From contig PMCS01000030.1 of assembly GCA_003154195.1 (NCBI GenBank), positions 59,446 through 123,445 on the forward strand: DNA of 64,000 nt. Direction: 5' to 3'. Shown here piece after piece: positions 4-36,085 of the stretch. The notes below the pieces were generated by a model, which worked only from the letters and a program-made list of their open reading frames with translations, had not been told where the DNA came from and did no database searches. The stretch comes from Candidatus Omnitrophota bacterium. GTDB taxonomy: Bacteria > Omnitrophota > Gorgyraeia > Duberdicusellales > 4484-171. A program made the position numbers and the translations under genes. The stretch's first letter is position 1. Each line of letters begins with the position of its first letter.

Positions 4-1383
4 ATGGGATTAGGGAAAGCATTCGGTATATCTTATCAATCGATACAGGTTTTAATCCAATTGCTGCTTCTTTTTTTGACTCAAATATTAATTTTGCAAA
101 TCATGCGGTTATTGAAAATTAATAAACTGATAACTGCTTTAACAATTCTTTATTTGGGAATTTCGCCGGCAATCGTAAATTCTGCTTTAAGTTTGTTTTC
201 GGAAATTATCACTTATCCTTTAATCCTGGCCGTCATGCTTCTAACTTATAAATCATGGATTTCTTTAACCGGCCGCAGGGGAAGGATTTTTTTGCTGGCT
301 ATACCGGCCGGTTTACTTTTTGCTGCGTTAACCTTAGCCAAAGGGATTTTTGAGGTGGTAACGCCGGTTTTTCTTTTTTTGTTTATCGTTTCGGCATTTT
401 TTACCCTTAATCGAAAAATTATTATCAATATTTTGCTGTACTCAATAGTTTTTTCCGCAGTTTTTTATCCGCTGGTTAATACTTATAAAGCGTTAAATAA
501 AAGATTTAACGGTCATTTTGTCGTTACCGATCGCGGGGAATGGGTAGTTTACGGTTATACGGTTCAGCGAACGGAGCCATTAACGACGGAACGTTTTTTG
601 GCCGGGTTAGCTTATGTGCCCGGCGAAGGCGTATGCAAATCTATATTCGGCGAACAAAAATGCAGCTTTTGGGATTTTCGAAAAGGCAGCCGGTTCGGCA
701 TGGAGAAAATGCAAGATCTTATAAATACAAAAACTATGTCGACGGCAGAAGTGCGCAATACCCTGATTTGGCTGGCCAAAGAAAGAATTCAACAGAACCC
801 GGCTCAATATATACTGCTTACTGCGATGGAAGGGGCAAAAATGTTTTTTTGGGAATCAAGCCAAATGGGTTTTGTCGAATATCCCCCCGGGTTAACAAAA
901 TTATTTTCCTGGGGGCCGTTTAAAAACGGGTTGCGGCTGGGGATATCGTTCTTGCTGTTGCTGGTTTTTGTTTGCGCGGGGACATTTTTTTGGAAAGAAA
1001 GGAAAACAGTGTTAAAAACAGAAAACCCGTCTTTATTCTCCTTCGCCGAATACCCTGCGGCTTGCCGTAGGGATGCCCTCCTTCGCCAAGGCTTCGGAGA
1101 GGTCTCTTCGAAGCTTGAAGAGCGAAGAAGGAAAGGCTCTGCTGCTTGGCTTCGGAGAAATGAAGCTGGATACCCCGCGGCTTGCCGCGGGGAGAACATT
1201 GGTGCTTCATTTATCTATTTTTGCCTGCTATTTATATTTGCTTTTGTAGGCTGTTATTCGTTGCTTCTTATCATCCCCCGATATATTTTACCGGTTGCGC
1301 CGCTGCATTTGGTTATTGCCGCCTATGTTTTTCAGAAAATATTATTAAACAAAAAGACGGTCTTCGAGGAAACATCCATATGA
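4..1383 (+). CDS. Polytopic membrane protein, possibly the C-terminal part of a GT-C (ArnT/PMT-like) glycosyltransferase. The 5' end may extend beyond the window. It carries an in-frame copy of repeat family B at ~1041-1215.
   Basis: Long open frame with many hydrophobic helices. The stop overlaps the next gene's start in an ATGA junction at 1380-1383. Codons ~345-405 are the translation of the family-B hairpin repeat. Confidence 0.45.
   Translation: MGLGKAFGISYQSIQVLIQLLLLFLTQILILQIMRLLKINKLITALTILYLGISPAIVNSALSLFSEIITYPLILAVMLLTYKSWISLTGRRGRIFLLAIPAGLLFAALTLAKGIFEVVTPVFLFLFIVSAFFTLNRKIIINILLYSIVFSAVFYPLVNTYKALNKRFNGHFVVTDRGEWVVYGYTVQRTEPLTTERFLAGLAYVPGEGVCKSIFGEQKCSFWDFRKGSRFGMEKMQDLINTKTMSTAEVRNTLIWLAKERIQQNPAQYILLTAMEGAKMFFWESSQMGFVEYPPGLTKLFSWGPFKNGLRLGISFLLLLVFVCAGTFFWKERKTVLKTENPSLFSFAEYPAACRRDALLRQGFGEVSSKLEERRRKGSAAWLRRNEAGYPAACRGENIGASFIYFCLLFIFAFVGCYSLLLIIPRYILPVAPLHLVIAAYVFQKILLNKKTVFEETSI
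1041..1215. repeat. Family-B repeat (copy 1), embedded in-frame in ORF 4-1383
   Basis: cttcgccgaataCCCTGCGGcttgCCGTAGGGatgccc ... gaagctggataCCCCGCGGcttgCCGCGGGGagaacattggtgcttcattt. Both hairpins keep the CTTG loop. Confidence 0.6.
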
Positions 1384-2840
1384 AAGTTTTGATTTATGTA
1401 GTTTGTTACAATGCCCGGGAGCATATCCATAACGTTTTAAAAAGGATACCCCTGCGGTATCGCGATAACCGCGATGTCGCGTTGCTGGTCAGCGATGACT
1501 GTTCATCCGACAATACCGCCGAAATAGCTTCGCAAAGCTGCAAGGAGTTGGGTTATACTAATTACGAGGTATTCCGGACAAAAGTAAACCAGGGTTACGG
1601 CGGCAACCAGAAGATCGGGTACAATTATGCCTGCAGCAACAATTTTGATTATGTTATTTTGTTGCATGGCGACGGCCAGTATGCGCCCGAAGAACTGGAT
1701 AACTTTTTTAAATTATTCGATGATCAACCGGACGTAATCCTTGGTTCCCGGATGCTGGTAAAAAAAGACGCGCTAAAAGGGAAAATGCCGGTTATAAGAT
1801 TCATTTCCAATATAATTTTAACCAGGATTCAAAATTTTTTAGCGCAAACCGACTTCGCGGAATTTCATACCGGATACCGGGCTTATTCCACGAAATTTCT
1901 TAAGGAAGTTCCCTTCGAATTAAATTCCAATGATTTTGATTTCGATACGGATATTTTGCTCCAGGCTAAATTTTTGGGGAAAAAAATAAAAGAATTTCCC
2001 ATATCAACTTTTTATGGCCAGGAAAAGTCTCGCGTCAAACTTATAAAATACGGCATTGATATTCTTAAAACAACCTTAAGATTTAAGCTGCAGCAAATGG
2101 GGATAGGGTGTTCGTTGAAGTTCAGGGGCAGCAAGCAATCGGTATATAAAGATAAGTTCGGTTATAAGTACACTTCGCATTACTATTTACTCGAAACAAT
2201 AAAAATTTTCAAACCGAAAAGAATACTGGAAATATCATCCGGAGCCGGATACCTGGGCGAAAAGCTGAAAGATGATAATATCTGGCTCGCCGGCATTGAC
2301 CTGTTTTGCCCCCAAAATGAATATTACAACCAATTTTTTTGCGAAAATATCGAACAATTCGACTGGAATAAATTGGACGGCGATCATTTCGATATGGTTT
2401 GCCTTATGGATATTCTGGAGCATTTGAAAGAACCGGAAAGCATTTTATTGGAGTTAAGACGCAACCCTAAATTCGAGAATGCGGTTTTTGTTATCAGTGT
2501 TCCCAACGTCGCGTTTTTTTCGATCAGGATCGGATTGCTTTTCGGTTCTTTTAATTATGCCGACAGGGGAATCCTCGATATCAGCCATAAACGTTTATTT
2601 ACCCACAGCTCTTTCAGCACGATGCTTAAAGAATGCGGGTTTAAAATCAGCAAAACTATACCGATTCCCCCGCCGTTTAAATTATTAAGCCAAGGTTTTA
2701 TTTCTTCTATCCTGGCGATAATTTTTAATTTATTAAATAAAGTTCTTCCCGGGTTATTTGCATTCCAGATTATAAAAATAGCTGTGCCTATCCCGGTCTC
2801 TACCAATATAATCAACAAACACCTGGAAAAATATAGTTAG
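1380..2840 (+). CDS. Bifunctional GT2 glycosyltransferase (N-terminal) plus class-I SAM methyltransferase (C-terminal)
   Basis: N-terminal VCYNAREHI...DDCSSDNT is a GT2 signature. The C-terminus has ILEISSGAGYLG (SAM-binding motif I) and DMVCLMDILEHL. The ATG at 1380 forms an ATGA overlap with the upstream stop. Confidence 0.7.
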   Translation: MKVLIYVVCYNAREHIHNVLKRIPLRYRDNRDVALLVSDDCSSDNTAEIASQSCKELGYTNYEVFRTKVNQGYGGNQKIGYNYACSNNFDYVILLHGDGQYAPEELDNFFKLFDDQPDVILGSRMLVKKDALKGKMPVIRFISNIILTRIQNFLAQTDFAEFHTGYRAYSTKFLKEVPFELNSNDFDFDTDILLQAKFLGKKIKEFPISTFYGQEKSRVKLIKYGIDILKTTLRFKLQQMGIGCSLKFRGSKQSVYKDKFGYKYTSHYYLLETIKIFKPKRILEISSGAGYLGEKLKDDNIWLAGIDLFCPQNEYYNQFFCENIEQFDWNKLDGDHFDMVCLMDILEHLKEPESILLELRRNPKFENAVFVISVPNVAFFSIRIGLLFGSFNYADRGILDISHKRLFTHSSFSTMLKECGFKISKTIPIPPPFKLLSQGFISSILAIIFNLLNKVLPGLFAFQIIKIAVPIPVSTNIINKHLEKYS

Positions 2841-2861
2841 GAAGAAATTTGAGGGGATGGA

Positions 2862-4969: not shown

Positions 4970-6667
4970 TTGGGATGTTTATACCCTAGCGGTAACTATT
5001 TTGTATATGCTATGGAAAGTAAAAGTTATTTTGGCAAGATTTTTTTAAGAGTATCTCATTTACCTACTATTCTTTTGATTGCGGGGTACTTGAGCTATTG
5101 GATCGAATTATATTTTATAAGAAAAAAAGGAGGAGCGGCTTCTCCTTTTGCTTTTATTTTATTTGCGGCATTTTCGATTTTTGTATTGTTTCATCGAAGG
5201 CGGCATATCCGGCAATTTTTTTCGTGGTTTGTTCAAGAGTACAAAAAACAGGAAAAAATAAGCAAGTATTTTTTGATAATTTCCTTCGGGCTTATTATCC
5301 CCATAATTATCATTGCATTTTATGCTCATTTGCTGCCGCCCCATCTAATCCAGGAATCCGATGCTTTAAATTATCATTTCACCTTACCTCATCAGCATCT
5401 TATCTCCGGTTCTTTTAAACATATCCGCTGGTCTTCGGCAGATTTATTTCCCTTGCCGGTACAATTTGCCCTGGCGCCATATTGGTTTGTGACCGAGCTG
5501 CCTAATAAATTTCCTCAATTTTTCTTTTTGATCGGCCTGGTTTTGGTAGCGGTCAATCTAGTGAAACAACTCGGTAATAATAATGTTTTCACCATGTGCC
5601 TTATGGCGTTTTCTATTTTTGGTTCGCATTTTTTAGGCATCCAGATCGGTACGGCAATGCTGGATATCGTTTTATGCTATCTTCTTTTTGCCGCGCTGGA
5701 TAGTTTTTTACAAGGCGACATTCTGGCAAGCGCAGTTGAGTTTACTTTTTTCTTATGGTCGAAATCCTTCATGCCTTTCCAGGTTTTTTTTATCGCCCTT
5801 GCCATGCTGCTGCTTTTTTTTATTCTTAAAAGGGCAGGGTTTAAAGATATCGGCTGGGGATTTACCGAAATAAACAGCCAGGATAATAAGCGGCGCTATC
5901 TTGCCCTATTAAAAAAAATGCCGGTACTTCTTATTTTGTTTACCGTCTTGATCGGCGGGCCTTTTTTAATCAAGTCGGCTTATTATTCAGGAACACCGCT
6001 ATTTCCTTTTATGCCGGGGATTATCAAGATAAACAAAAATATTGATAAGAACTCCGATGCCTGGCGATCTATATTAGCATCGTCGGAGTCCTATGTGAGC
6101 AAGAAAGATATGTATGGGTATGGGAGGTCCCCGGTTGCTTTTATACGCCATTTATTCTTGATCGCTGTTCCGGAAGAGGGGGTTAATAACCGGTATGATT
6201 ATCCGGTAGGTTTGCCATATTTGCTTTTCGCAGGGCCATTTTTATATTTTTTATTTTTTTCGTTAAAGAAAAAACAATTCGTAATCCTGCCGTTGTTTAT
6301 AATATTTTATTGGATATCCTGGTGGTTTGGTTCGCACCAGACAAGATTTCTTTATATTCCTATTTTTCTTATTATTGCCGTGAGTTTACCGGCAATAAAA
6401 GTTAAATCTAAGATATTTATGGCGGCGATAGTGATTTCATTATTAACTACCGGGATGTCGGTATTCCGGGCTCACCGTAAAGATTTTGGATTATTAGGAA
6501 AAATCGATATTCTAAGAGAAAAAGACCGGCGAATAGTGGAAATGAATAAGAGATATTCGGGGATTGATAGAGGCAGTGCAATTTCTCTCGACTATTACGA
6601 TGTTGCCTACGCGAAGTTCCCGGTTAATGTAACAAAGGAAGAATTACCCTGGATTTTATCCCGTTAG
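4970..6667 (+). CDS. Polytopic membrane protein, paralog of the 2862 gene; candidate membrane glycosyltransferase or polymerase
   Basis: Many TM helices, the motif SGTPLFPFMPG and a hydrophilic C-terminal segment. The ORF-track start is TTG at 4970; the first ATG is at 5012. Confidence 0.5.
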   Translation: MGCLYPSGNYFVYAMESKSYFGKIFLRVSHLPTILLIAGYLSYWIELYFIRKKGGAASPFAFILFAAFSIFVLFHRRRHIRQFFSWFVQEYKKQEKISKYFLIISFGLIIPIIIIAFYAHLLPPHLIQESDALNYHFTLPHQHLISGSFKHIRWSSADLFPLPVQFALAPYWFVTELPNKFPQFFFLIGLVLVAVNLVKQLGNNNVFTMCLMAFSIFGSHFLGIQIGTAMLDIVLCYLLFAALDSFLQGDILASAVEFTFFLWSKSFMPFQVFFIALAMLLLFFILKRAGFKDIGWGFTEINSQDNKRRYLALLKKMPVLLILFTVLIGGPFLIKSAYYSGTPLFPFMPGIIKINKNIDKNSDAWRSILASSESYVSKKDMYGYGRSPVAFIRHLFLIAVPEEGVNNRYDYPVGLPYLLFAGPFLYFLFFSLKKKQFVILPLFIIFYWISWWFGSHQTRFLYIPIFLIIAVSLPAIKVKSKIFMAAIVISLLTTGMSVFRAHRKDFGLLGKIDILREKDRRIVEMNKRYSGIDRGSAISLDYYDVAYAKFPVNVTKEELPWILSR

Positions 6668-6800
6668 CAGGAATATCCCCGCCGTGAGGCGGGGGATGAT
6701 AGCAGGACGGGGCGTCGCCCCACGGGGCGTATTAGAGAGGTACCACGGGCGCTCGCCTCTCGGCGAAGCCGAAGGGTAAGCCCGTGGGGCTCCAGTACCG
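6668..6800. repeat. GC-rich structured repeat (family C, copy 1) with a GNRA-like hairpin
   Basis: ccccgccGTGAggcgggg is a 7-bp stem with a GTGA loop. It is followed by ggggcgtcgccccacggggcg and ctcgcctctcggcgaagcc. The inverse of that last core recurs at 12740-12770. Confidence 0.5.
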
Positions 6801-6920
6801 CGTCAACTTAATTTTTAATAGTGGTGCGCGGTACAAGTGCATGTAGAAATTAATTTTTCCTGAAGCGATACCGGTAAAAATTAATTTGACAGTGCACTAG
6901 TCGGTGCGAAGCCGCGAAGA

Positions 6921-8396
6921 TTGACAACAAACCCACCGACAAAGTCGGTGGCAAATTTTGCCGCGCCGGCGCGGTTACAAAAGAAGAAAGACGTGAAAAT
7001 ATATTTGATTAATCCCCCATGGTTTACCAAAGAAGATAATATCTGGTCTTATATCAGAGGAGTTAACCCGCCTTTGGGGCTGCTCAATTTAGCGGCTTAT
7101 CTTGAAAAAGCAAAAGTTGACGTTGATATTATCGATTTCCAGACTTCTTCCTGGAGTTGGGAAGGAATAGAGCGAAAAGTTCAATCGCTAAAATGTGATT
7201 TTTTTGGGATAACCGCTACTACTCCTATCGTAAATAATGCTTATCGTATTTGTGACATAATAAAATATTTACATCCTTCATCGAAAATCATCCTCGGTGG
7301 AGTCCACGCTACGGCATTGCCGGAGGAAGCTTTAGGCAAGCCGGCGATTGATTACGTGGTACGGGGCGAAGGGGAAGTCGCGTTGTTGAGTTTAATCCAG
7401 GGGGCGCCGCTTGACGGTATAGCGGGAATTTCTTATAGGGAAAATGGAAAATATAAGCATGTTAAGCCTGACGGCATCATACCCGACTTAGATGATTTAC
7501 CTTTTCCCGCTTACCATAAAATAAACTTATCCGATTATCATCCTACGGTAGGATCCTACAAAAGGCTGCCGGCAGTTAGTCTGCTTACCACGCGAGGGTG
7601 TATGGGAAAATGTACTTTTTGTAATTCGGCGAATATCCCCTTAAGGGTAAGGAATGCGGATAATATTTTTCAGGAAATAGAAATGCTTTCAAGGAAATAT
7701 GGCATAAAAGAAATATCTTTCTATGATGATACTTTTGTCGCCTATCGTAAAAATATAATGAGATTATGCGAATTGATTATCAAGAATAAACTCGATTTAA
7801 CATGGTCGTGTTTTGCCCGGACAGATTGCGTAAACACGGACATTTTGAAAATAATGAAACGAGCCGGTTGCCATCAGATCATGTATGGGATTGAATCGGC
7901 CCAAAAGGAAATTCTGGCAAATATCAAAAAACACTGCATTGATAGCCGCAGCATCAAGCAGGCGATAGAAATTACTAAAAAAGCCGGGATAACTGTGCGT
8001 TGCGCTTTTATGTTCGGTAGTCCGGGAGAAACAGAAGAAACGATAGACGATACTATCGAATATTCGATACGGCTCGATCCGGATATCGCGATATATAATA
8101 TAACTACTCCTTACCCCGGGACAGAAATGTTCAGGTGGGCAAAAGAGCGGGGATATTTAAGAACAGAGAATTGGGATGATTACGACTTAAGCAAGCCGAT
8201 TATGGATTTGCCTACTATCAACGGGAAGGTTTTGACGCAAAAATACCGACAGGCCTTTGTCCGGTTTTATTTCAGGCCCAAACTAATCTTTAAAAAAATG
8301 TTCAGCATAAGATTTTTGACGGATTTACCTATTTTAATCAAAGGTATGAAGAGTATCCTTAATTTTGCGTGCCGGATCCGTAATGAAGGGGTTTAA
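6921..8396 (+). CDS. Cobalamin (B12)-binding radical SAM enzyme (class B; candidate C-methyltransferase or rearrangement enzyme)
   Basis: N-terminal Rossmann-like B12-binding region (KIYLINPPW...LGLLNLAAYL...DIIDF). Radical-SAM cluster motif GCMGKCTFC (CX3CX2C). The start is uncertain (TTG at 6921 or GTG near 6993). Confidence 0.75.
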   Translation: MTTNPPTKSVANFAAPARLQKKKDVKIYLINPPWFTKEDNIWSYIRGVNPPLGLLNLAAYLEKAKVDVDIIDFQTSSWSWEGIERKVQSLKCDFFGITATTPIVNNAYRICDIIKYLHPSSKIILGGVHATALPEEALGKPAIDYVVRGEGEVALLSLIQGAPLDGIAGISYRENGKYKHVKPDGIIPDLDDLPFPAYHKINLSDYHPTVGSYKRLPAVSLLTTRGCMGKCTFCNSANIPLRVRNADNIFQEIEMLSRKYGIKEISFYDDTFVAYRKNIMRLCELIIKNKLDLTWSCFARTDCVNTDILKIMKRAGCHQIMYGIESAQKEILANIKKHCIDSRSIKQAIEITKKAGITVRCAFMFGSPGETEETIDDTIEYSIRLDPDIAIYNITTPYPGTEMFRWAKERGYLRTENWDDYDLSKPIMDLPTINGKVLTQKYRQAFVRFYFRPKLIFKKMFSIRFLTDLPILIKGMKSILNFACRIRNEGV

Positions 8397-8400
8397 AAAT

Positions 8401-9177
8401 ATGGCTGGAAAATATAATTATTTTAACATTCTGGGCGTAAAGGTTTCGGCGATAGCTATCGACGATGCCTGCAATTTTGTGAAAGGCGCGATAGCGGATA
8501 ATACAAAGACCTATGTCTGCGTGTGCCCGGTCAGCACGATTATGGAGTGCCAAAAAGATGAGAGAATGATGGCGGTAGTTAACTCGGCTGGTTTAGTTAC
8601 CCCTGACGGTATGCCGGTGGTATGGCTGGGAAAAATTAAAGGATATAAGAATATAAGCAGGGTTTATGGCCCGGATTTAATCTCTGAACTTTGTAAGATC
8701 TCCGAAGGGAAAGGATACAAAAATTATTTCTATGGCTGCACCCCTGATGTTTTAGATAAGCTTAAGCAAAGATTAAAAGATGTTTTTCCCGGTTTGTTGA
8801 TAGCAGGGATGTATTCTCCGCCGTTTCGTCAATTGGCCAAAGAAGAGGATGATGGGGTCGTTAAGGATATAAATAATGTTAATCCGGATATAATATGGGT
8901 AGGCCTGGGCTCGCCCAAGCAGGATATCTGGATGTATGAGCATAGGGATAGAATCAACGCGCCGGTGATGGTGGGTGTCGGCGCGGCGTTTGATTTTTTG
9001 GCCGGGACCAAGCCCCAGGCGCCAAAGTGGATGCGCGATAACGGCTTGGAATGGTTATTCCGCCTGGTTAGCGAGCCTAAGCGGTTATGGAAGAGATATC
9101 TTATCGGTAATACTTTGTTTATTTGGTATCTGCTTGGGGAGTTGACCCGGCAGCGGTTTCGACCGGGGCGAAAATAA
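8401..9177 (+). CDS. WecB/TagA/CpsF-family (GT26) glycosyltransferase
   Basis: YNYFNILGVKVSAI...LVTPDGMPVVW...SPPF...VGLGSPKQD matches the TagA/WecG N-acetylmannosaminyltransferase family. AAGGGG RBS 11 nt upstream of the ATG at 8401. Confidence 0.75.
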   Translation: MAGKYNYFNILGVKVSAIAIDDACNFVKGAIADNTKTYVCVCPVSTIMECQKDERMMAVVNSAGLVTPDGMPVVWLGKIKGYKNISRVYGPDLISELCKISEGKGYKNYFYGCTPDVLDKLKQRLKDVFPGLLIAGMYSPPFRQLAKEEDDGVVKDINNVNPDIIWVGLGSPKQDIWMYEHRDRINAPVMVGVGAAFDFLAGTKPQAPKWMRDNGLEWLFRLVSEPKRLWKRYLIGNTLFIWYLLGELTRQRFRPGRK

Positions 9178-26185: not shown

Positions 26186-26868
26186 AGAAGAATATTTACG
26201 AAAATCTTTATAGCGCGCAGGACAGCCTTGATTTATCGCATTGCCAACGCCTGGCGATTATGCTGGATATGGTAAACTGCCGGGATTTCGCAAACAGGAA
26301 AATACTGGATATCGGTTGCCATGACGGGGCGTTTCTATCCCGGATAAAAAACAGGAATAACGAGTTTTACGGCATTGAAGCCGCTGATTTCGCGGTTGAT
26401 AAGGCCAGGGAGAAAGGGATAAAAGTAGAAAAATTCTTTTTTGACGATACAAGCGCGTTGCCTTTTGCCGACGGTTTTTTTGACCTGATTGTCGCGGGGG
26501 AAATAATCGAGCATATCTACGATACCGATTTTTTTCTTTCGGAAATAAAAAGGTTGTTAAAAATTGACGGATATTTGCTTATTTCTACCCCGAATATCGC
26601 TTCCCTGGGCCGGCGGCTGATGCTTCTTCTGGGGTTTAACCCGATTATTGAAGTATCGCCCAATGAAAAAGGTAGCTGCGGCCATATCCGCTATTTTACT
26701 TTTAAAACTCTGCGCGGTATTTTAGAAAAACATGGATTTATTCTTATCGCCGGCAGGTCCGATGTGGTTAATTTTTCCGGGGGAGGAAGGTTGAAGTCGT
26801 CGTTTCTGGCTGATATTTTTCCCGCTTTAGGGCAAAGCGTTATCTATTTTTGTCAAAGGAAAGCATAA
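26182..26868 (+). CDS. Class-I SAM methyltransferase
   Basis: ILDIGCHDGAF (motif I) and DLIVAGEIIEHIYD. Confidence 0.7.
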   Translation: MKKNIYENLYSAQDSLDLSHCQRLAIMLDMVNCRDFANRKILDIGCHDGAFLSRIKNRNNEFYGIEAADFAVDKAREKGIKVEKFFFDDTSALPFADGFFDLIVAGEIIEHIYDTDFFLSEIKRLLKIDGYLLISTPNIASLGRRLMLLLGFNPIIEVSPNEKGSCGHIRYFTFKTLRGILEKHGFILIAGRSDVVNFSGGGRLKSSFLADIFPALGQSVIYFCQRKA

Positions 26869-28838: not shown

Positions 28839-29510
28839 ATGAAAAAGTTAAAATTTAAACCCCAGGCGGTTATTTTTGATATGGACGGCGTCATCGTTGA
28901 TTCGATGCCGTATCACTTTATAGCCTGGTATGAGGCGCTGCGGCCTTACGGGGTAAGAGTAACTTGCTTTGACGTATTTGCAAAAGAAGGGGAGCAATGG
29001 GAAAAATCATTGCGATATTTTTTGAGGCGCGCCGGGATAAAGCCTACGGCACAGCTTCTGGCGGAAATCTTCGCGCGGCGCCGGAAAATCTTTAAGAAAA
29101 ATTTTAAACGTTTTCTTTTTAAGGGCGCGGTTGAACTCTTGTTTCGTTTAAAAAATAACGGTTATTTGTTGGGTTTAGTGACGGGTACGCCGCTGGCCCA
29201 GGTAAAAAAGATTCTTCCTCCCCGGATCTTTAATTTGTTCGAGGCGGTTATCACCGGCGACAGGGTCAAAAAAGGCAAGCCCCATCCCCAGCCTTATTTA
29301 ACCGCGGCGTGCGCTCTTAAGCTTAAACCGAAGCGGTGCCTGGTGATTGAAAATGCTCCCTTTGGCATTGAGTCTGCCGGCAAAGCGGGGATGTATTGTG
29401 TGGCGGTAACTACCAGTTTACCCGCGCAATATCTGGGTATGGCCGATATGGTTGTCGACACGTTAGAAGATGTTTCCCTCCTTATCAAATCCTGCGCCTC
29501 AAATAATTAG
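28839..29510 (+). CDS. HAD-superfamily hydrolase (subfamily IA, beta-phosphoglucomutase-like; sugar phosphatase)
   Basis: AVIFDMDGVIVDS (motif I, DxD) and the later GxxTG / K ... D motifs. Confidence 0.8.
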   Translation: MKKLKFKPQAVIFDMDGVIVDSMPYHFIAWYEALRPYGVRVTCFDVFAKEGEQWEKSLRYFLRRAGIKPTAQLLAEIFARRRKIFKKNFKRFLFKGAVELLFRLKNNGYLLGLVTGTPLAQVKKILPPRIFNLFEAVITGDRVKKGKPHPQPYLTAACALKLKPKRCLVIENAPFGIESAGKAGMYCVAVTTSLPAQYLGMADMVVDTLEDVSLLIKSCASNN

Positions 29511-29632: not shown

Positions 29633-30769
29633 ATGAATAAAATCGGCCTTATGGATTTAAAAAGAGAGTACCCTCTCCTGAAGAAAGATATCGAGAAGCA
29701 GATAAGAGAGTGCGTGGGATCCCATCGGTGGATCCTGGGCGATGCCGTGACTGGACTGGAAAAGCAGGTTTCCCTGTACCTGGGGGCAAAATACGCGGTC
29801 GGCGTCGCTTCGGGAACCGACGCGCTTGTCCTGGCGCTCCGGGCCATGGCGATTGCGCGCCGGGATAAAAGTTGTTTCGATAAACACGATGAAATAATCA
29901 CTACGCCTTTTACTTTTATCGCTACCGCCGAGGCCATTGTCCATAGCGGGGCGACACCGGTGTTTGTCGACATCGATCCCGATACGTTTAATATAAACCC
30001 GCTGGCGATAGAAAAGGCGGTTACTAAGAATACCGTCGGTATTATACCGGTCCATCTTTACGGTTTAGGCTGCGATATGGGCCAAATCATAAAAATCTCC
30101 CGGGAAAATAATTTATTCGTCGTGGAGGATAACGCCCAATCGTTTGGCGGCATGTACCAAGATAAAAAACTCGGTTCAATCGGCGATTGCGGCTGCCATA
30201 GTTTTTTCCCTTCTAAAACACTGGGGGGATGGGGCGACGGCGGCCTGGTTGCCACCAGCGACCATAAAGTCTTGCCGTTACTGAAGGCGTTAAGAAATCA
30301 CGGCCAGACTGCGGCGTATGACGCAAGCTATATCGGTTATAACTCGCGCTTGGATTCTTTGCAGGCCGCGGTACTCCTGGCTAAATTGCGCCATTTCGAT
30401 AAGCTGGATAATCTACGGCGGACAGTTGCCGCTAAATACGCGAAAGCTTTTGACACGATGGCTATGGTCCAGCCGCAACCGGTGCGTAAAGGTTATCGCC
30501 ATGCCTACGGACTTTATACGATTAAGGTAAGCGCCGGTTCGCGCGATAAACTGCTGGCATATCTAAATGCCAACGATGTAGAGTCACGCGTCTATTATCC
30601 CGTGCCCCTGCATGAGATGAAGGCGTTTAAGGCCGCCAAAGTAAGCGGCGAGCTTAAAGCCGTCGAGGATGTGAAAAAAAGAGTGTTGAGCATCCCGATG
30701 CATCCGTTTCTCAAAGATAACGAGATTGATTATATCATCAAGACTATTCGCGCTTTTTTTAAAACATAA
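29633..30769 (+). CDS. DegT/DnrJ/EryC1/StrS-family PLP-dependent sugar aminotransferase
   Basis: Family-typical N-terminal motifs, the active-site lysine region SFFPSKTLGGWGDGG, and the usual length. Confidence 0.9.
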   Translation: MNKIGLMDLKREYPLLKKDIEKQIRECVGSHRWILGDAVTGLEKQVSLYLGAKYAVGVASGTDALVLALRAMAIARRDKSCFDKHDEIITTPFTFIATAEAIVHSGATPVFVDIDPDTFNINPLAIEKAVTKNTVGIIPVHLYGLGCDMGQIIKISRENNLFVVEDNAQSFGGMYQDKKLGSIGDCGCHSFFPSKTLGGWGDGGLVATSDHKVLPLLKALRNHGQTAAYDASYIGYNSRLDSLQAAVLLAKLRHFDKLDNLRRTVAAKYAKAFDTMAMVQPQPVRKGYRHAYGLYTIKVSAGSRDKLLAYLNANDVESRVYYPVPLHEMKAFKAAKVSGELKAVEDVKKRVLSIPMHPFLKDNEIDYIIKTIRAFFKT

Positions 30770-30852: not shown

Positions 30853-31644
30853 ATGAAACACGTAAAAGAGAAATTTTCTATAGTTATCCCGGTGTATAAT
30901 GAGGCGGAAAGGATACGCAACAATCTTCTGGAGGTTAAAAAGACTTTTGACGATTTTGGCTGCAGTTATGAAATTGTCGCGATTGATGACGGTTCAACCG
31001 ACGATTCACGCGCTGTTTTAGAGAGCCTTTGCAAGGAAATCCCCAATCTTCTCGTGCAAAAGAATTCGCATAATTTCGGGAAGGGGCGCGCCTTAAAAAA
31101 AGCTTTCAAATATATAAGCGGCGATTTGATAGTTTGGTTGGACGCGGATTTAGAGTTGCACCCTTTCCAGGTAAAAACGCTTTACGATATCATGGTCCTC
31201 GACGGCGCGGATATCGTTATTGGTTCTAAGATGCATCCCAATTCCCAGGTTGCCTACCCGGCACATCGGCGGATTATGAGCTGGGGTTATTATTTTTTCA
31301 TCAGGTTATTTTTTCATTTGCCGTGCCAGGATACGCAAACCGGTTTGAAAATTTTCAAGCGTAAGGTTTTGGAGGAAGTTTTGCCGCGGATTCTGGTGAA
31401 GAAATTTGCTTTTGACCTGGAAGTATTGGCGAACGCCAATTACCTGGGGTTTAAAATAATCGACGCGCCGATTGTCCTGGATACAAAAAGAGAATATTCC
31501 CGCTTAGGTTTAAGCGCGGTATTTATCACTTTTTGGGATACACTCGCCGTGTGGTACAGGATGTACATCCTGAAATATTATGACCGTATCGATCATTATC
31601 GCCGTAAAGGGTTACTGCGGGAATTTAAAAGAGTGCGTAAATAA
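30853..31644 (+). CDS. GT2-family glycosyltransferase (dolichyl/polyprenyl-phosphate sugar synthase-like)
   Basis: FSIVIPVYNEAERI...VAIDDGSTDDS...WLDADLE. Confidence 0.8.
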   Translation: MKHVKEKFSIVIPVYNEAERIRNNLLEVKKTFDDFGCSYEIVAIDDGSTDDSRAVLESLCKEIPNLLVQKNSHNFGKGRALKKAFKYISGDLIVWLDADLELHPFQVKTLYDIMVLDGADIVIGSKMHPNSQVAYPAHRRIMSWGYYFFIRLFFHLPCQDTQTGLKIFKRKVLEEVLPRILVKKFAFDLEVLANANYLGFKIIDAPIVLDTKREYSRLGLSAVFITFWDTLAVWYRMYILKYYDRIDHYRRKGLLREFKRVRK

Positions 31645-32575
31645 TTCTTTCAAAATTTTCCCGGTAAATTTTGAAATAATTATTTTGCCCGATGAAATAT
31701 TTGAAAACGGGTGGCGGGATCAAAGAGTAAAAATTATACCTACGGGGAATGTTGCGCCGCCCGTTAAGCGGGACATCGGAGTAAGAGAGGCAAAGGGAGA
31801 GATAATTGCTTTTCTGGATGATGATACCTATCCGGCGCCGTGTTGGTTGGACGCCGCTTTAAAGTTGTTTGAAGGCAAAGATATCGCTTGCGTTTGCGGC
31901 CCGGCAGTCACGCCGGATGACGATTCCTTATTGCAGAAGGCAAGCGGCATCGTTTATGAGTCGTACCTGGTCAGCGGCGGCCATAATTTTCGCTATATTC
32001 CTAAGCCCGCCCGGTTTGTCGATGATTTTCCCAGTTGTAATTTTTTAATCCGGAGAGATATCTTTGAAAAAGTCGGCGGTTTTGACACGAAGTTTTGGCC
32101 GGGCGAAGATACTTTCCTTTGCCTTAAGGTTAAGCAAGCAGGAAAAAAAATGCTTTACCATCCCGCGGTTTTGGTCTATCACCATCGGCGCGGCCTTTTC
32201 GCCAAACATTTAAAACAGATCATCAACTACGGTTTACACCGGGGATATTTTGCCCGCAAATTTCCGGAAACTTCCCTGAGGATTACCTATTTTATCCCGT
32301 CGCTATTGCTTTTATGGTTGATTTCGGGTATTTTTTCCGGGCTTTCCGCGAAATTCGCGGCAATCTATTTTCTATCGGTATTATTTTATCTTGGCTGTGT
32401 GATGGCGGGGACGATTTTGGTTTTGGCGGGCAAAAAAGAAAAGATGGAAAATAAAATAAAATTGATTTTTTTAGTTTTTAGCGGAATAATCGCCACCCAT
32501 CTCGCTTATGGGATTTATTTTATCAAGGGGCTAATGGCTTCAAGCATGCCGGAGGAAACAGCAGATGATCGCTGA
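31580..32575 (+). CDS. GT2-family glycosyltransferase with C-terminal TM helices
   Basis: VSIIIAVKG...AFLDDDT (DxD) and hydrophobic C-terminal helices. The TGA stop lies inside the left TIR of the GxxExxY element remnant. Confidence 0.65.
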   Translation: MTVSIIIAVKGYCGNLKECVNNSFKIFPVNFEIIILPDEIFENGWRDQRVKIIPTGNVAPPVKRDIGVREAKGEIIAFLDDDTYPAPCWLDAALKLFEGKDIACVCGPAVTPDDDSLLQKASGIVYESYLVSGGHNFRYIPKPARFVDDFPSCNFLIRRDIFEKVGGFDTKFWPGEDTFLCLKVKQAGKKMLYHPAVLVYHHRRGLFAKHLKQIINYGLHRGYFARKFPETSLRITYFIPSLLLLWLISGIFSGLSAKFAAIYFLSVLFYLGCVMAGTILVLAGKKEKMENKIKLIFLVFSGIIATHLAYGIYFIKGLMASSMPEETADDR

Positions 32576-32790
32576 TTGGAAGATGCAGACGATCGCTGAG
32601 GATACGTATATTTATAGTGATTTAACCTATAGGTTTATTATTATGCCAAGGGCTCAAAATATAAATTGGTCTTATTAATTAATTTTGGTTCTCCTAAAGT
32701 TACCATAAAAAGATTAATATATACTAAAGGCGCAGGATGATATTTTATCTGTGATCATCTGCTTCTTCTAATCAGTGATCATCCGTGACT
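32561..32790 (+). mobile_element. Internally deleted (MITE-like) copy of the TIR-bounded GxxExxY element
   Basis: gcagatgatcgctga...tatagtgatttaacctata is the 5' ~70 bp of the element. It then jumps to ttatgccaagggctcaaaatataaattggtcttatt...tatctgtgatcatctgcttcttctaatcagtgatcatccgtgac, the 3' ~150 bp plus right TIR. Both parts are ~90% identical to 37678-38147. Confidence 0.7.
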
Positions 32791-34302
32791 ATGAAAATCA
32801 TAATTTGTTTTCCTCCCTTAAGCAACGAAAAAGGCTATCCGACCTTAGGCCAGAACCGGCAATTCCAATATTTTAAAGAACCGACATATATTTATCCGGT
32901 GGTTCCGGCAACCGCCGCCACGATGTTGGCCAAACGCGGTTTCGATGTAGTCTGGCTTGATTGTATCTCCCAGAATTTATCTTCCGATAAATTCCGGGAT
33001 ATAATCAGAAAAGAGAAACCGGATTTGGTTGCTTTAGAAACAAAAACCCCGGTAATAAAACAGGAGTGGCGTGTCGTCGATGATCTCAAGCGATTGGCGC
33101 GGGAAGAGGGTTGGAATTTAAACGTTGTATTGTTCGGCGACCATGTTACGGCCTTGCCGCAGGAGTCATTTGACAATTGCGGCGTCGATTTTATTTTAAC
33201 CGGCGGCGACTACGACTTTTTACTGCTTAATCTTTGTAATTTTCTTAAAGAATTTCCTTCGCTTCCCGCGCGCGATTTTAACGGGCCGGTCATGACCGGC
33301 CCCTACAGGTTAGAGCCGGGAATCTGGTACCGGGCGGGTAACGAAATAAAGAATACCGGTACTTTTAAGCTCGACCATGATTTGAATAGCCTTCCTTTTA
33401 TCGATCGAGACCTTACCCGATGGCCGCTTTACGCTTATAAAAATGGAAACTACCGGCGTACCCCGGGGACTTATATCATGTCGGCCCGGGATTGCTGGTG
33501 GGGAAAGTGTACTTTTTGCGGGTGGACGACAATCTATCCGCATTATCGAGCGAGAGGAGTTAAAAATGTTTTAAACGAAATAGAATATTTAGTTAATAAT
33601 TATAAGATTAAAGAGATTATGGACGATTCCGGGACTTTTCCCGTTGGAGAGTGGCTGAATAATTTTTGCCGGGGCATGATTGAACGCGGTTTGAATAAAA
33701 AAGTTACCCTTGATTGCAATATGCGTTTTGGCGCGGTTGACCGGCCGGGTTATGAATTAATGCGAAAGGCGGGGTTCCGGTTTTTACTTTTCGGTTTAGA
33801 GTCGGCCAGCCAGCAGACTTTAGACCGAATTAATAAAAATTTGAAGGCCGAAACGATTGTCTCATCCTGCCGCGCCGCCCGCGCCGCCGGCCTTTATCCG
33901 CACATAACCCTGATGTTTGGCTACCCCTGGGAAAGTTATGAGGATGCCGAAAAAACTCTCCAATTAGGAAAGTACCTGCTTAAAAAAGATTATGCTTATA
34001 CGATGCAGGCGACGGTGGTCATCCCTTATCCCGGCACTCCTTTGTTCGACGAATGCAAAAAGAACGGGTTATTATATACTCTCGATTGGCAGGAGTATGA
34101 TATGAAAAAACCGGTGATGAAATTATCGTTCGCTCCGGATAAATTAATGAGCCTCGTCCAGAGCATGTACGCGGTAACTTTTTCTCCCGAATTTATTTTT
34201 CGTAAATTATTAAGCATAAGGGATATCAACGATATAAAATATTTTGGCAGGGGATTTTTAAAAGTGCTGGGGCATCTGCTTGATTTTCGGAAAAGAAGTT
34301 AG
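32791..34302 (+). CDS. Cobalamin-binding radical SAM enzyme (class B)
   Basis: N-terminal B12-binding-like domain. Cluster motif DCWWGKCTFCGW. The ATG lies 2 nt after the right TIR. Confidence 0.7.
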   Translation: MKIIICFPPLSNEKGYPTLGQNRQFQYFKEPTYIYPVVPATAATMLAKRGFDVVWLDCISQNLSSDKFRDIIRKEKPDLVALETKTPVIKQEWRVVDDLKRLAREEGWNLNVVLFGDHVTALPQESFDNCGVDFILTGGDYDFLLLNLCNFLKEFPSLPARDFNGPVMTGPYRLEPGIWYRAGNEIKNTGTFKLDHDLNSLPFIDRDLTRWPLYAYKNGNYRRTPGTYIMSARDCWWGKCTFCGWTTIYPHYRARGVKNVLNEIEYLVNNYKIKEIMDDSGTFPVGEWLNNFCRGMIERGLNKKVTLDCNMRFGAVDRPGYELMRKAGFRFLLFGLESASQQTLDRINKNLKAETIVSSCRAARAAGLYPHITLMFGYPWESYEDAEKTLQLGKYLLKKDYAYTMQATVVIPYPGTPLFDECKKNGLLYTLDWQEYDMKKPVMKLSFAPDKLMSLVQSMYAVTFSPEFIFRKLLSIRDINDIKYFGRGFLKVLGHLLDFRKRS

Positions 34303-34484: not shown

Positions 34485-35768
34485 ATGCGCATTAAACACA
34501 AAATACAATCTCTGCTCAAGGACAGTCTTTTCTTCGATATGGTCGTGATTTTGCTGGGCGCCGCCGGAGGAGGATTTCTAAACTTCATTTACCGTCTTGT
34601 CTGCATAAGGTTTCTGCCGGCGGCGGACTACGGCACCTTAAACGCGTTGATTGCGCTGGTGATGCTCGGCAGTGTGGGGTTGTCACCGCTGGGGACGACT
34701 TTTACGCGATTTTTTACCGAATACGCCGCGCGCAATGATTTCGCTTTATTGGTGCGCGCGTTTAAGGCAATCGCGAAAAAAATAGTTTTTAGCAGTCTGC
34801 TTATTTTTTTACTGTTTGCTGTCGCTTCGCCGTTGACGGCTAAATTTCTCAATACGCGTATTCTGTATGTGAATATTGCCGGCGTTTTGATCGCGGTGGC
34901 GGTTATCTCGCCCTTGTTTATGTCGGTATTACAGAGCTTACAGCGGTTTAAATTATTTTCCTCCGTCGGTATTGTTTCTGCATTTTTTAAGATTGTCGTC
35001 GGCGCTTTTTTGATGTGGCGGGGCTTTGGTGTTTTAGGGGGCATTTTAGGCTATTTTACCGCGTCGGCGGTGGCGCTGGTGATGCCGTTATATTTTATAC
35101 CCCGTATCTTCAGGCGTTTACGCGATGAGCATAAAAATTGCCCCGCCGGTGAATTAGACCCCAAGCCTTTTTACCGGTATTTTTTTCCGGTGTCGCTGGC
35201 GATGTTCGCCTTTTCTTCCTTTACCAATATCGACAGTATCATCGTTAAGCATTTTTTTTCTTCCGTGGATACAGGATATTATTCGATTGCCCAGAATATC
35301 GCCAGTATCGCTTTATTCTTACCGTCGGCATTGGCCATCGTAATTTTTCCCAAAAGCACAAAAGCGTTTGTTGAAGGGAGGGATTCCCCCCGTATTTTGC
35401 GTAAATCGCTGTTGTTGGCCGCGGCTTTTTGTTTTCTTTTTGTCGCCGGAGTTTTTATCGTTCCCAATACCGTCCTTATTCTTTTTACCGGAAAGACTAA
35501 CCCGGCCAGCGCCGGCTTGCTTGGGCTTCTGTCGGCAGCGCTGAGTTTCTACGCGCTCACGTGGATAATGATAAATTTCCTCCTGGCGGTGCACAACCTG
35601 GATTTTATCGTTCCCTTTGCTGTTTTGGCGGGGCTGGAAGCGATTTGTGTTTATAATTGTCACCAAAGCCTGATGATGGTAGGATATACGGTAACTATTT
35701 TTGCCGTCCTTGCTTTTACGATGTTGCTTTGGTCGGCGCGGAATAAAGTCCATATTAGACAGGGTTAA
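34485..35768 (+). CDS. Polysaccharide biosynthesis / Wzx-like flippase (MOP superfamily)
   Basis: About 12 TM helices, ~425 aa, and a glycan-cluster context. Confidence 0.55.
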   Translation: MRIKHKIQSLLKDSLFFDMVVILLGAAGGGFLNFIYRLVCIRFLPAADYGTLNALIALVMLGSVGLSPLGTTFTRFFTEYAARNDFALLVRAFKAIAKKIVFSSLLIFLLFAVASPLTAKFLNTRILYVNIAGVLIAVAVISPLFMSVLQSLQRFKLFSSVGIVSAFFKIVVGAFLMWRGFGVLGGILGYFTASAVALVMPLYFIPRIFRRLRDEHKNCPAGELDPKPFYRYFFPVSLAMFAFSSFTNIDSIIVKHFFSSVDTGYYSIAQNIASIALFLPSALAIVIFPKSTKAFVEGRDSPRILRKSLLLAAAFCFLFVAGVFIVPNTVLILFTGKTNPASAGLLGLLSAALSFYALTWIMINFLLAVHNLDFIVPFAVLAGLEAICVYNCHQSLMMVGYTVTIFAVLAFTMLLWSARNKVHIRQG

Positions 35769-35773
35769 GGCTA

Positions 35774-35870
35774 AGGCTAGGCTCTCCTTCGCTCTTCGAG
35801 CTTCGGAGAAGTCTCGCCGAAGTTCTCCTTCGCTCTTCGAGCTTCGGAGAAATCTCGCCGAAGGCCTTGG
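35774..35870 (+). repeat. Tandem duplication of a 43-bp unit (family G) fused to family-A copy 2
   Basis: ctccttcgctcttcgagcttcggagaaRtctcgccgaag occurs twice, then gccttggcgaaggcggactttagcgaaggcggaaagccggtttggg. The reverse complement recurs at 38955-39050. Confidence 0.6.
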
Positions 35871-35930
35871 CGAAGGCGGACTTTAGCGAAGGCGGAAAGC
35901 CGGTTTGGGTTAAAAAACTTGGTTAGGGTA

Positions 35931-36085
35931 AGGGTAAAGATGCCCGTATGGGCCATGGTTATGGTTAAGGCTGTAAATTCGTATTAGCCCTAACCGTTAC
36001 CATAGCCCAAACCGGCTTCATAACCTTAACCCTAGCCGATTAACTACCGGCATCGTTGCCTTTACCCTAACCATGTCATAACCTT
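35931..36085 (+). repeat. Family-A repeat (copy 2)
   Basis: ggttagggtaagggtaaagatgcccgtatgggccatggttatggttaaggctgtaaattcgtattagccctaaccgttaccatagcccaaaccggcttcataaccttaaccctagcc, ~90% identical to copy 1, with an extra ctttaccctaacc arm. Confidence 0.7.

Follow-up and report, generated by a model that had tools for sequence, protein, structure and literature searches.

Recurrent pairing of class-B radical SAM enzymes with sugar transferases in a putative surface polysaccharide locus of Omnitrophota

Introduction

Class-B (B12-binding) radical S-adenosylmethionine (SAM) enzymes, here called rSAMs, form a very large group, most of it without known function, and the characterised members that act on carbohydrates come from antibiotic or lipid pathways. 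Three of them are encoded in a single sugar-gene island of a Candidatus Omnitrophota bacterium, within a stretch of 64,000 nucleotides (contig PMCS01000030.1, positions 59,446 to 123,445, assembly GCA_003154195.1) that we call the window. Do these three enzymes belong to the glycan pathway of the island, and what would they do to its sugars? We found that orthologues of two of them adjoin the same glycosyltransferase (GT) and methyltransferase (MT) genes in metagenome-assembled genomes (MAGs) labelled as several phyla. The locus is a real, uncharacterised and phylogenetically widespread glycan-tailoring cassette built on known enzyme classes, and the recurrent pairs of rSAM and sugar transferase point to an undescribed chemical decoration of cell-surface sugars.

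Reviews name GenK, GenD1/GntE, Fms7, MoeK5 and HpnJ (on genetic evidence only) as the carbohydrate-acting members and, within rSAMs generally, Cds; surface polysaccharides go unmentioned there (PMC12931638, PMC13459092). Our full-text literature search returned no paper linking class-B rSAMs to cell-surface polysaccharide loci.

Results

Conserved gene modules

Open reading frames (ORFs) of the window were listed, every substantial one was scanned with Pfam, and NCBIfam models were used for curated family calls. Pfam finds a B12-binding domain (PF02310) together with a Radical_SAM domain (PF04055) in the proteins at 6921, 21014 and 32785, in agreement with a preliminary description of the window that had placed three B12-binding rSAMs in a glycan island. 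We refer to them as rSAM 1, rSAM 2 and rSAM 3, and to other genes by family and first coordinate. The rSAM genes and the neighbours treated with them are as follows.

4970-6667 (+), membrane glycosyltransferase of predicted GT-C fold, DUF8201 family (found in Omnitrophota)
6921-8396 (+), rSAM 1, class-B (B12-binding and Radical_SAM), CMGKCTFC at residue 227; true start probably ~6948
13936-14745 (+), GT2, conserved-cassette member
18956-19957 (+), GT2, conserved upstream partner of the MT-rSAM 2 pair
20140-21036 (+), SAM methyltransferase with N-terminal CxxC...CxxC zinc ribbon; overlaps the rSAM 2 start
21014-22459 (+), rSAM 2, class-B, CPYSCYYC at residue 198, GGPH B12-domain motif
22462-23445 (+), GT2, conserved-cassette member
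24420-25043 (+), SAM methyltransferase
25028-26185 (+), GT4 glycosyltransferase, conserved-cassette member
26182-26868 (+), SAM methyltransferase
26850-28715 (+), YfhO-like (GT-C) membrane protein; no Pfam match itself, YfhO via homologues
30853-31644 (+), GT2 of ArnC/PgfS/PpgS type, first gene of the conserved rSAM 3 module
31580-32575 (+), GT2 with 2-4 C-terminal transmembrane helices (MftF-like), directly upstream of rSAM 3
32785-34302 (+), rSAM 3, class-B, DCWWGKCTFC; likely start the ATG at 32791

A scan of one genome per species gave 78 loci, whose ORFs were called and searched with all window proteins. rSAM 2 has more than 2,300 homologues, and the top 120 are 54-67% identical to it, bar one fragment of the window protein itself. 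The few with a taxon name come from Patescibacteria groups (Patescibacteria, Parcubacteria, Shapirobacteria), Omnitrophica, Nitrospirae and Pseudomonadota MAGs. In 12 of the 13 informative loci with an rSAM 2 orthologue (52-67% identity), an orthologue of MT 20140 is adjacent, one gene off or fused. Fusions of MT and rSAM 2 were found in proteins P0104, P0110 and P0117 and in locus L020 (9104-11410); the three proteins (~769 aa) carry an N-terminal Methyltransf_11-type domain whose window equivalent is the separate MT 20140-21036. This MT has a CPYC...CVGC zinc-ribbon extension of ~90 residues N-terminal to its Rossmann fold. Ten of the 13 loci have an orthologue of GT2 18956 upstream, either immediately or at most two genes away, and scores of 291-513 bits were obtained for it in 11 of the ortholog loci L011-L031. 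Downstream of rSAM 2 a relative of GT2 22462 is common, followed by a further class-B rSAM, and other genomes show the series GT2 22462 relative, class-B rSAM, MT and AftD-like GT-C. In the relatives at 43-45% identity an rSAM-SPASM enzyme takes the place of the MT.

The neighbourhood of rSAM 3 is conserved in the same manner. Its orthologues (48-58% identity) follow an orthologue of GT2 31580 in six of eight loci, and in four of those six (L021, L025, L026, L031) an orthologue of GT2 30853 stands just upstream, the other two being cut at a contig edge. L014 keeps orthologues of MT 24420, GT4 25028, MT 26182 and membrane protein 26850 in collinear order, and L031 does so in part. L014, from an Omnitrophota MAG, is the only locus collinear with window 21014-28715.

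The cassette loci come from MAGs labelled Shapirobacteria, Woesebacteria, Parcubacteria, Saccharibacteria, Omnitrophota, Auribacterota, Gammaproteobacteria/Pseudomonadales and Bdellovibrionales. In related loci the cassette is accompanied by further GT2, GT4 and MT genes, an ABC-2 exporter, a TPR membrane protein and an AftD-like GT-C. A Woesebacteria MAG (L021) has five class-B rSAMs and one rSAM-SPASM enzyme, and a MAG labelled Gammaproteobacteria (L026) has four and three, respectively. In L021, L024 and L026 the four or five class-B rSAM genes fall within ~20 kb; L024, from a Deltaproteobacteria MAG, holds four paralogues of the 21014 family and no recognisable cassette GT2. The rml and gmd genes of the window (14892-18945) interrupt the cassette between GT2 13936 and GT2 18956.

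The rSAM/GT2/MT neighbourhood is non-random, with shared strand, overlapping codons and recurrence in unrelated genomes. Orthologues of 21014 and 32785 adjoin the same GT2, MT and GT4 orthologues, in a module order kept at 50-67% identity across these MAGs labelled as several phyla. This conserved linkage, together with the MT fusion, indicates, as the preliminary description had supposed, that the rSAMs belong to the glycan pathway and are not accidental neighbours, and makes heavy tailoring a sound prediction. By gene content and order, the window holds a widespread glycan cassette, shared horizontally and adapted here to Wzx/Wzy, and not an idiosyncratic O-antigen locus.

rSAM 1 and the membrane glycosyltransferases

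The rSAM 1 family has 47-74% identity across MAGs labelled Elusimicrobia, Magnetococcales, Nitrospirae, Nitrospinae, Omnitrophota and Planctomycetes. The orthologue in L089, from a Magnetococcales MAG, comes after a GT2 that is fused with a GtrA/DPMS transmembrane domain. In L090, from an Elusimicrobia MAG, it lies ahead of a PMT_2 (GT-C) protein of 746 aa, which has no detectable similarity to 4970, with an MT nearby, and in a Planctomycetes MAG (L091) a relative precedes a DegT aminotransferase. We ruled out 4970 and rSAM 1 as an obligatory pair, given that in L092 and L093 (one Omnitrophota MAG and one metagenome contig) a 4970 homologue lies beside or near WecG without a B12-rSAM. rSAM 1 is therefore an insertion into that backbone in the lineage of the window, where it stands between 4970 and WecG.

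The polytopic proteins 4-1383, 2862, 4970 and 26850 gave no Pfam match even at E up to 5. A profile search (A3) against PDB sequences had a non-significant oligosaccharyltransferase (E 0.19) as its lone match. The AlphaFold2 model of 4970, built from 43 homologues, reached a pLDDT of 88 and a pTM of 0.91, and the Foldseek neighbours in PDB are almost all GT-C enzymes at a probability of ~1 (ALG12, ALG9, PglB, ArnT, DPY19, Pmt4, PimE, EmbB, AftB). E129-x-D131 is invariant in the family and lies in the loop after the early transmembrane helices. The predicted fold and these acidic loop residues identify 4970 as a putative GT-C-type transferase. Its taxon-named homologues (42-60% identity) are all Candidatus Omnitrophica/Omnitrophota. 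The 26850 family comprises 5,288 homologues; among 50 that were scanned, 11 matched YfhO, three DUF6541 and one PMT_2, and one also carries GT2 domains, probably the 925-aa P0387 with its 338-aa N-terminal extension. The YfhO matches of its homologues suggest that 26850 is likewise of GT-C type. GT-C enzymes take polyprenyl-phosphate-linked donors, so that lipid-phosphate sugar donors are implied if 4970 and 26850 are of this type. GT2 30853 and the GT2 half of 1380 are closest to polyprenyl-phosphate sugar synthases (ArnC, PgfS, AglJ, PpgS, Dol-P-hexose transferase), all with sub-threshold scores.

Sequence and fold of the radical SAM enzymes

The Pfam cut-offs are 32.1 bits for PF02310 and 29.5 bits for PF04055. 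rSAM 1 scored 90.5 and 78.6 bits and rSAM 2 scored 50.9 and 90.0 bits, respectively. The CxxxCxxC motif of the [4Fe-4S] cluster is present in four of the five rSAM proteins of the window. The exception is 32785, in which it reads C-x4-C-x2-C (DCWWG[KR]C[TS]FC); all three cysteines are kept in eight of nine aligned sequences, that is, in the window protein and seven of eight orthologues. In the rSAM 3 family (L015, L018, L020, L021, L025-L027, L031) this form replaces CxxxCxxC, and G-D-H occurs where the B12 domains of rSAM 1 and rSAM 2 have G-G-x-H. rSAM 1 and rSAM 2 retain the canonical GG[VP]H motif. The three proteins are mutually 23-28% identical and are old paralogues.

The AlphaFold2 model of 21014 (pLDDT 86) superposes on TsrM, TokK, CysS, OxsB and MgmA over both domains with TM-scores of 0.6-0.68. 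By predicted domain content all three proteins fit the class-B architecture. Cobalamin binding is predicted from this content, with the caveat that AprD4 has a B12-like domain without the cofactor. An Rfam search detected no cobalamin riboswitch in the window.

HpnJ (TIGR03471) was the best profile for all three, with 241, 139 and 127 bits for rSAM 1, 2 and 3 against a cut-off of 577.6, followed by BchE (TIGR02026) with 198, 134 and 122 bits against 481. Membership of the HpnJ and BchE families is not indicated by these sub-threshold scores, and the window has no hopanoid genes. The next-best models were P-methyltransferases, ApyD and ladderane-type enzymes. AprD4 (NF033070; cut-off 500) gave 87, 105 and 21 bits, with the rSAM core alone aligned. 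The curated methylase models likewise assigned none of the three to their families: TsrM (TIGR04428; cut-off 500) gave 44 and 23 bits for rSAM 1 and 2, KedN5 (cut-off 700) gave 68 and 31, and neither matched rSAM 3; HpnR (cut-off 650) gave 90, 61 and 47 bits and the Mmp10-type TIGR04014 (cut-off 360) gave 100, 89 and 46 bits. A search of PDB sequences with the rSAMs returned AprD4, MgmA (= QCMT), TsrM and TokK only, all with low scores. The best solved relative of rSAM 1 and rSAM 2 was AprD4; for 21014 against the paromamine-bound structure (6fd2), E was 2.7e-25 by sequence and 1.5e-23 in Foldseek, with a TM-score of 0.68-0.72. PDB entry 9CCB is the glutamine C-methyltransferase of methyl-coenzyme M reductase (PMC12931638).

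Layout of the island

The island is a single-strand gene array at window 4-35768, all on the plus strand, with many overlapping stop and start codons and a GC content of 0.38-0.46. It extends to the left beyond the window edge, and on strain contig L094 the sugar genes (for sugar activation, aminotransferases and GT4) continue upstream for at least 10 kb. The glycan island given as 1380-36000 in the preliminary description is thus real and larger, beginning at 4 and running past the left edge. Two toxin-antitoxin insertions (12950-13795 and 23633-24282) split the array into three blocks. These genes sit exactly at the joints of the blocks, which is consistent with modular assembly via horizontal transfer. 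The remaining genes of the island are as follows.

4-1383 (+), polytopic membrane protein, ~10 predicted transmembrane helices; no Pfam match; truncated by the window edge, 534 aa in L094
1380-2840 (+), GT2 fused to a SAM methyltransferase; ATG at 1380 overlaps the preceding stop codon
2862-4781 (+), polytopic membrane protein, ~11 transmembrane helices; no Pfam match
8365-9177 (+), WecG/TagA-family (GT26) glycosyltransferase (Pfam)
9514-10980 (+), priming polyprenyl glycosylphosphotransferase (Bac_transf); TIGR03025 414 bits (cut-off 296)
11059-12294 (+), Wzy_C-type polymerase or ligase-like membrane protein; PF04932 49.8 bits (cut-off 31.7)
12950-13795 (+), fused nucleotidyltransferase-HepT (MNT-HepT) toxin-antitoxin protein, insertion (Pfam)
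14892-15794 (+), RmlA, glucose-1-phosphate thymidylyltransferase; TIGR01207 459 bits (cut-off 361)
15766-16590 (+), NRS/ER-type bifunctional 4-keto-6-deoxyhexose 3,5-epimerase/4-reductase, 274 aa; PDB matches 4qqr, 7jid
16670-17722 (+), RmlB, dTDP-glucose 4,6-dehydratase; 423 bits (cut-off 365)
17968-18945 (+), Gmd, GDP-mannose 4,6-dehydratase; 425 bits (cut-off 415)
23633-24282 (+), MazE-like antitoxin and PIN toxin pair, second insertion
28839-29510 (+), HAD-family phosphatase or beta-phosphoglucomutase-like protein
29633-30769 (+), DegT-family sugar aminotransferase
34485-35768 (+), Wzx-type flippase (Polysacc_synt), last island gene; PF01943 46.4 bits (cut-off 28.2)

The core of a Wzx/Wzy-dependent locus is complete, since the priming phosphotransferase, Wzx and Wzy all score above their cut-offs. 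No GtrA-type flippase was identified in the window. With NCBIfam, the GT2s and MTs gave sub-threshold matches only, and no specific function was assigned to them. Most of the conventional toolkit listed in the preliminary description was recovered (rfbA, rfbB, gmd, DegT, HAD, GT4, GT26, initiating transferase, Wzy and Wzx), but not rfbD, because 15766 is not RmlD. Its counts need correction: six GT2s were found instead of seven (1380, 13936, 18956, 22462, 30853 and 31580), and four SAM-MT domains instead of five (the C-terminus of 1380, 20140, 24420 and 26182), the fused one having apparently been counted twice.

Supply of activated sugars

The window lacks the canonical RmlABCD set. RmlA and RmlB pass their cut-offs, no RmlC (dTDP_sugar_isom) match is present among the window ORFs of at least 100 aa, and 15766 scored 49.7 bits with the RmlD model, below the cut-off of 224. 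We rejected 15766 as RmlD, its match to any RmlD being no better than E 2e-6, compared with E 3e-31 for Arabidopsis NRS/ER (4qqr); mimivirus UDP-L-rhamnose synthase (L780; 7jid) gave E 1e-22. The protein aligns with these enzymes over ~225-260 residues, retains the catalytic motifs GCI[FY]xYD (Cys-containing), FYSxTK and ITK...DIPNS, and would replace both RmlC and RmlD. Unlike them, it lies in a bacterial rmlA-X-rmlB operon and presumably uses a dTDP- and not a UDP-linked intermediate. With an NRS/ER-type enzyme, L-rhamnose can be made without RmlC or RmlD. The absence of rfbC noted in the preliminary description is thus literally true within the window, but the idea that it diverts the 4-keto intermediate to DegT or the rSAMs fails. 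DegT 29633 resembles the 3-aminotransferases QdtB and WbpE more than it does perosamine synthase.

Discussion

We propose that the island is a Wzx/Wzy-type surface-heteropolysaccharide locus with a horizontally shared glycan-tailoring cassette, in which the rSAMs tailor lipid-linked sugars by methyl transfer. Taken as a whole, we rate this proposal at a little under an even chance. The cassette would consist of modules with a GT2, sometimes a SAM methyltransferase, and then a class-B rSAM: 4970-6921 (GT-C, rSAM 1), 13936/18956-20140-21014-22462 (GT2, GT2, MT, rSAM 2, GT2) and 30853-31580-32785 (GT2, GT2, rSAM 3). By homology, RmlA, RmlB and the NRS/ER-type enzyme would supply L-rhamnose, Gmd would supply GDP-4-keto-6-deoxymannose and DegT an amino sugar. 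The 9514 phosphotransferase would load the polyprenyl phosphate carrier, and WecG, the GT2s and the GT4 would extend the repeat unit at the cytoplasmic face.

Each rSAM would then act on the sugar newly attached to the polyprenyl-linked intermediate by its partner GT2. The rSAMs are Fe-S enzymes and must work on the cytoplasmic side. That they stay next to, or fused with, particular GT2 and MT genes across loci suggests that the modified residue is the one installed by the partner GT2. Of the possible reactions, methyl transfer to an unactivated carbon would be the likeliest, given that methyltransferases make up most of the characterised class-B enzymes (PMC12931638). Precedents for rSAMs on lipid-linked sugars are MoeK5, HpnJ and Cds (PMC12931638, PMC13459092). 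The adjacent or fused SAM methyltransferases may add O- or N-methyl groups. Wzx would flip the unit and Wzy polymerise it, in an order that we infer from parts assigned by homology. Outside the membrane, the GT-C enzymes (4970, 26850, perhaps 2862 and 4-1383) may add side residues from polyprenyl-monophosphate sugars, which the ArnC/DPM1-like GT2s (30853 and the N-terminal part of 1380) would provide. The predicted product is a glycan that is heavily methylated or otherwise radically modified.

Several observations weigh against this proposal. None of the three rSAMs reaches any curated family cut-off (NCBIfam), so that the scores do not establish a reaction type, and their nearest characterised relatives are HpnJ (proposed ring contraction), BchE (a cyclase) and AprD4 (a cobalamin-free diol-dehydratase), with no methylase among them. 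The PF02310 score of rSAM 3, 35.0 bits, is borderline at the threshold (PF04055, 54.5 bits), as is that of the fourth B12-domain protein of the window, at 52163. The substrate stage, polyprenyl- or nucleotide-linked, is inferred from gene adjacency alone. For 4970, the Foldseek E-values are modest (1e-3 to 0.1; TM-scores 0.35-0.46), and its homologue is next to WecG in one of the two loci L092 and L093 and ~7 kb upstream in the other, with no B12-rSAM in either. The window ORFs of at least 100 aa give no Pfam match to Wzz/Wzc or Wza, which may lie outside the window. MAGs may carry unreliable taxon labels.

The same tailoring role could be filled by non-methylating chemistry, with at least one rSAM catalysing a radical rearrangement, deoxygenation, epimerisation or oxidation of the sugar. 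We regard this as somewhat unlikely, yet it deserves serious attention. Its models would be an HpnJ/Cds-like ring contraction to a carbocyclic cyclitol or an AprD4-like 1,2-diol dehydration to a deoxy-keto sugar, while the MTs supply all methyls. It agrees with HpnJ and BchE as top profiles of all three enzymes, with AprD4 as the top PDB match of 21014 both by sequence and by structure, and with a GT2 and rSAM pairing that mirrors HpnI/HpnJ. The SAM-MT fused to rSAM 2 provides methylation capacity without the rSAM, and the atypical cluster motif of rSAM 3 and the rSAM-SPASM enzyme that replaces the MT in the relatives at 43-45% identity also speak for such chemistry. However, scores of at most 241 bits against 578 for HpnJ and at most 105 against 500 for AprD4 allow broad subgroup placement only, and rSAM 1 and rSAM 2 have GG[VP]H and a clear PF02310 domain, unlike the cobalamin-free AprD4. 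An HpnK-like deacetylase or AprD3-like reductase partner was not identified, and the prevalence of methyltransferases among characterised class-B enzymes (PMC12931638) also argues for methylation. The preliminary description had reasoned from class B to C-methylation. Its placement of the rSAMs in the glycan pathway and its heavy tailoring are sound, but the step from class B to methylation is not supported in that form: profiles favour HpnJ/BchE, structure favours AprD4, and the TsrM and KedN5 models give at most 68 bits. It had also held that clustering with non-methylating families would speak against it. The best matches (HpnJ, BchE, AprD4) are in part of that kind, at distances that prove neither reading.

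The two other explanations move the rSAMs away from lipid-linked sugars. They might act earlier, on soluble nucleoside diphosphate (NDP) sugars (dTDP- or GDP-4-keto-6-deoxyhexoses from RmlB and Gmd), and give the GT2s branched or deoxy donors. The rml and gmd genes sit inside the cassette just upstream of the MT-rSAM 2 pair, genes for short-chain dehydrogenase/reductase-type dehydratases or epimerases occupy comparable positions in L012 and L021, the Planctomycetes relative of rSAM 1 adjoins a DegT aminotransferase, and the substrate of Fom3 is CMP-linked. But it is the GT2s, not the nucleotide-sugar genes, that are conserved with the rSAMs across loci, and the relatives of rSAM 1 accompany GtrA-fused GT2 and GT-C proteins, which handle lipid-linked sugars; we therefore find an NDP-sugar stage improbable. 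Very improbable, in our view, is that the rSAMs modify no glycan at all but a lipid (polyprenol, membrane-spanning or hopanoid-like) or a peptide, and are merely co-located or carried with mobile DNA. Weak profile matches to enzymes of lipids and of ribosomally synthesised and post-translationally modified peptides (RiPPs) exist (rSAM_ladder_B12, 67-128 bits; ApyD, 70-154 bits; RiPP C-methyltransferases), the toxin-antitoxin insertions show a mosaic island, and rSAM-SPASM enzymes, typical of RiPP pathways, occur in related cassettes. Against this stands the tight co-directional, often overlapping linkage to the same GT2, GT4 and MT orthologues across MAGs with different phylum labels, and the modules yielded neither a precursor-peptide nor a lipid-synthesis gene; hopanoid genes are absent as well. 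A RiPP or lipid pathway, which the SPASM enzymes had suggested, was rejected as the leading interpretation in view of the consistent GT2/GT4/ABC-2/GT-C context.

Tailoring of lipid-linked sugars, which we prefer, has partial counterparts in known systems. In HpnI/HpnJ, with Cds as an analogue, a GT2 adds a hexosamine to a lipid and an adjacent B12-domain rSAM remodels the lipid-linked sugar in the cytoplasm. The window proteins differ in scoring far below the cut-off and in lying, without hopanoid genes or HpnK, in a Wzx/Wzy locus with several such enzymes. MoeK5 acts on a lipid-linked saccharide. Together with GenK, GenD1/GntE and Fms7 of aminoglycoside pathways, this moenomycin enzyme represents the cobalamin-type rSAMs that C-methylate unactivated sugar carbons, the chemistry assumed in the preliminary description. 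These enzymes belong to actinomycete secondary-metabolite pathways and not to surface polysaccharide loci, and our comparison with them was made through the TsrM and KedN5 models. AprD4, of apramycin C3'-deoxygenation, acts on a carbohydrate and has the two-domain layout of 21014. It depends on the reductase AprD3. Cobalamin is not bound by AprD4, which is treated as unrelated to true B12 enzymes (PMC12931638), and the reaction of HpnJ is known from genetics only (PMC13459092). In GtrA/B/C, ArnC/ArnT and CsbB/YfhO, a DPM1/ArnC-like GT2 makes a polyprenyl-phosphate sugar that a GT-C enzyme transfers outside, as proposed here for 30853, the 1380 half, 4970 and 26850. No rSAM step is known in those systems, and the GT-C proteins of the window lack a Pfam match of their own.

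A broader proposal can be made only tentatively, as a possibility that we would not count on. The three rSAMs may found new class-B subfamilies, one of them with C-x4-C-x2-C, that act on cell-envelope glycans, and the GT2-(MT)-rSAM cassette, shared horizontally among Patescibacteria of the candidate phyla radiation (CPR), Omnitrophota and other uncultured lineages, may build a conserved surface oligosaccharide with C-branched, deoxygenated or carbocyclic (ring-contracted) sugars. Such sugar chemistry would be undescribed for any bacterial surface polysaccharide, and small-celled episymbionts might use the product for attachment to a host or for a stable envelope. If the rSAMs C-methylate or rearrange lipid-carried sugars, they would add a new layer of glycan chemistry. 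Such activity would also account for the several B12-requiring enzymes that some genome-reduced CPR bacteria retain, and would offer new biocatalysts for unactivated sugar carbons. The locus provides a testable system, with three conserved enzyme families, each at ~50-65% identity across MAGs labelled as distant phyla, each with a glycosyltransferase partner, and one with a Rosetta-stone methyltransferase fusion.

Additional features of the window

Identical copies of window proteins were found on 9-13 metagenome contigs. The island varies among strains (L002, L003, L094), while rSAM 2 is 100% identical. L002 alone has a short Gmd of 275 aa, GT2 22462 is reduced to 243 aa, and in L002 a 335-aa ORF without Pfam match occupies the position of GT2 18956. 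On strain contigs the GT2-MT fusion appears as two parts of 191 and 288 aa, and an upstream DegT gene is likewise split in two. These differences suggest ongoing decay or phase-like variation of the surface locus.

Two further rSAM genes reported in the preliminary description, at 36096 and 52163, were both confirmed by Pfam. The first encodes an rSAM-only protein of 312 aa (36096-37034) that is weakly viperin/MoaA-like and has no relative in PDB. It overlaps by 4 bp, and is translationally coupled to, a gene for a YggS-type pyridoxal phosphate-binding protein, followed by a PD-(D/E)XK_3 protein; this small operon (36096-38100) stands at the right border of the island, and no link of the rSAM to glycans was seen. 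The second gene (52163-53521, minus strand) scored 32.5 bits for PF02310 and 73.3 bits for PF04055, with PhpK as its best model (63 bits). It lies outside the glycan island, convergent (tail to tail) with the second of two giant genes, and in L007 and L008 it keeps this place beside a PD-(D/E)XK_3 gene and tilS.

Neither of the giant proteins, 40140-47315 (2391 aa) and 47582-52084 (1500 aa), has a significant Pfam domain. The two share 70% identity over the first ~370 residues and 63% over the last 68, which makes them paralogous surface or secreted proteins with swapped middles. Giant genes are typical of Omnitrophota (bioRxiv 10.64898/2026.06.07.730766); with the named homologues of 4970 and the collinearity with L014, they make membership of the organism in this phylum probable.

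A group I intron (Rfam RF00028, 86.8 bits) occupies 62683-62913 in a tRNA-Tyr(GUA) gene (62645-62962), between U35 and A36. The gene is flanked by tRNA-Thr(UGU) and tRNA-Gly(UCC). ARAGORN misses the split gene and calls tRNA-Tyr (gta) when the exons are joined. Group I introns in bacterial tRNA genes are, to our knowledge, known for Leu, fMet, Ile and Arg, but not for Tyr. A 234-aa ORF (62049-62753) with weak helix-turn-helix-like matches only begins upstream of the intron and reaches into the 5' exon of tRNA-Tyr and the first part of the intron; it may be either an ORF extended too far or a gene associated with the intron.

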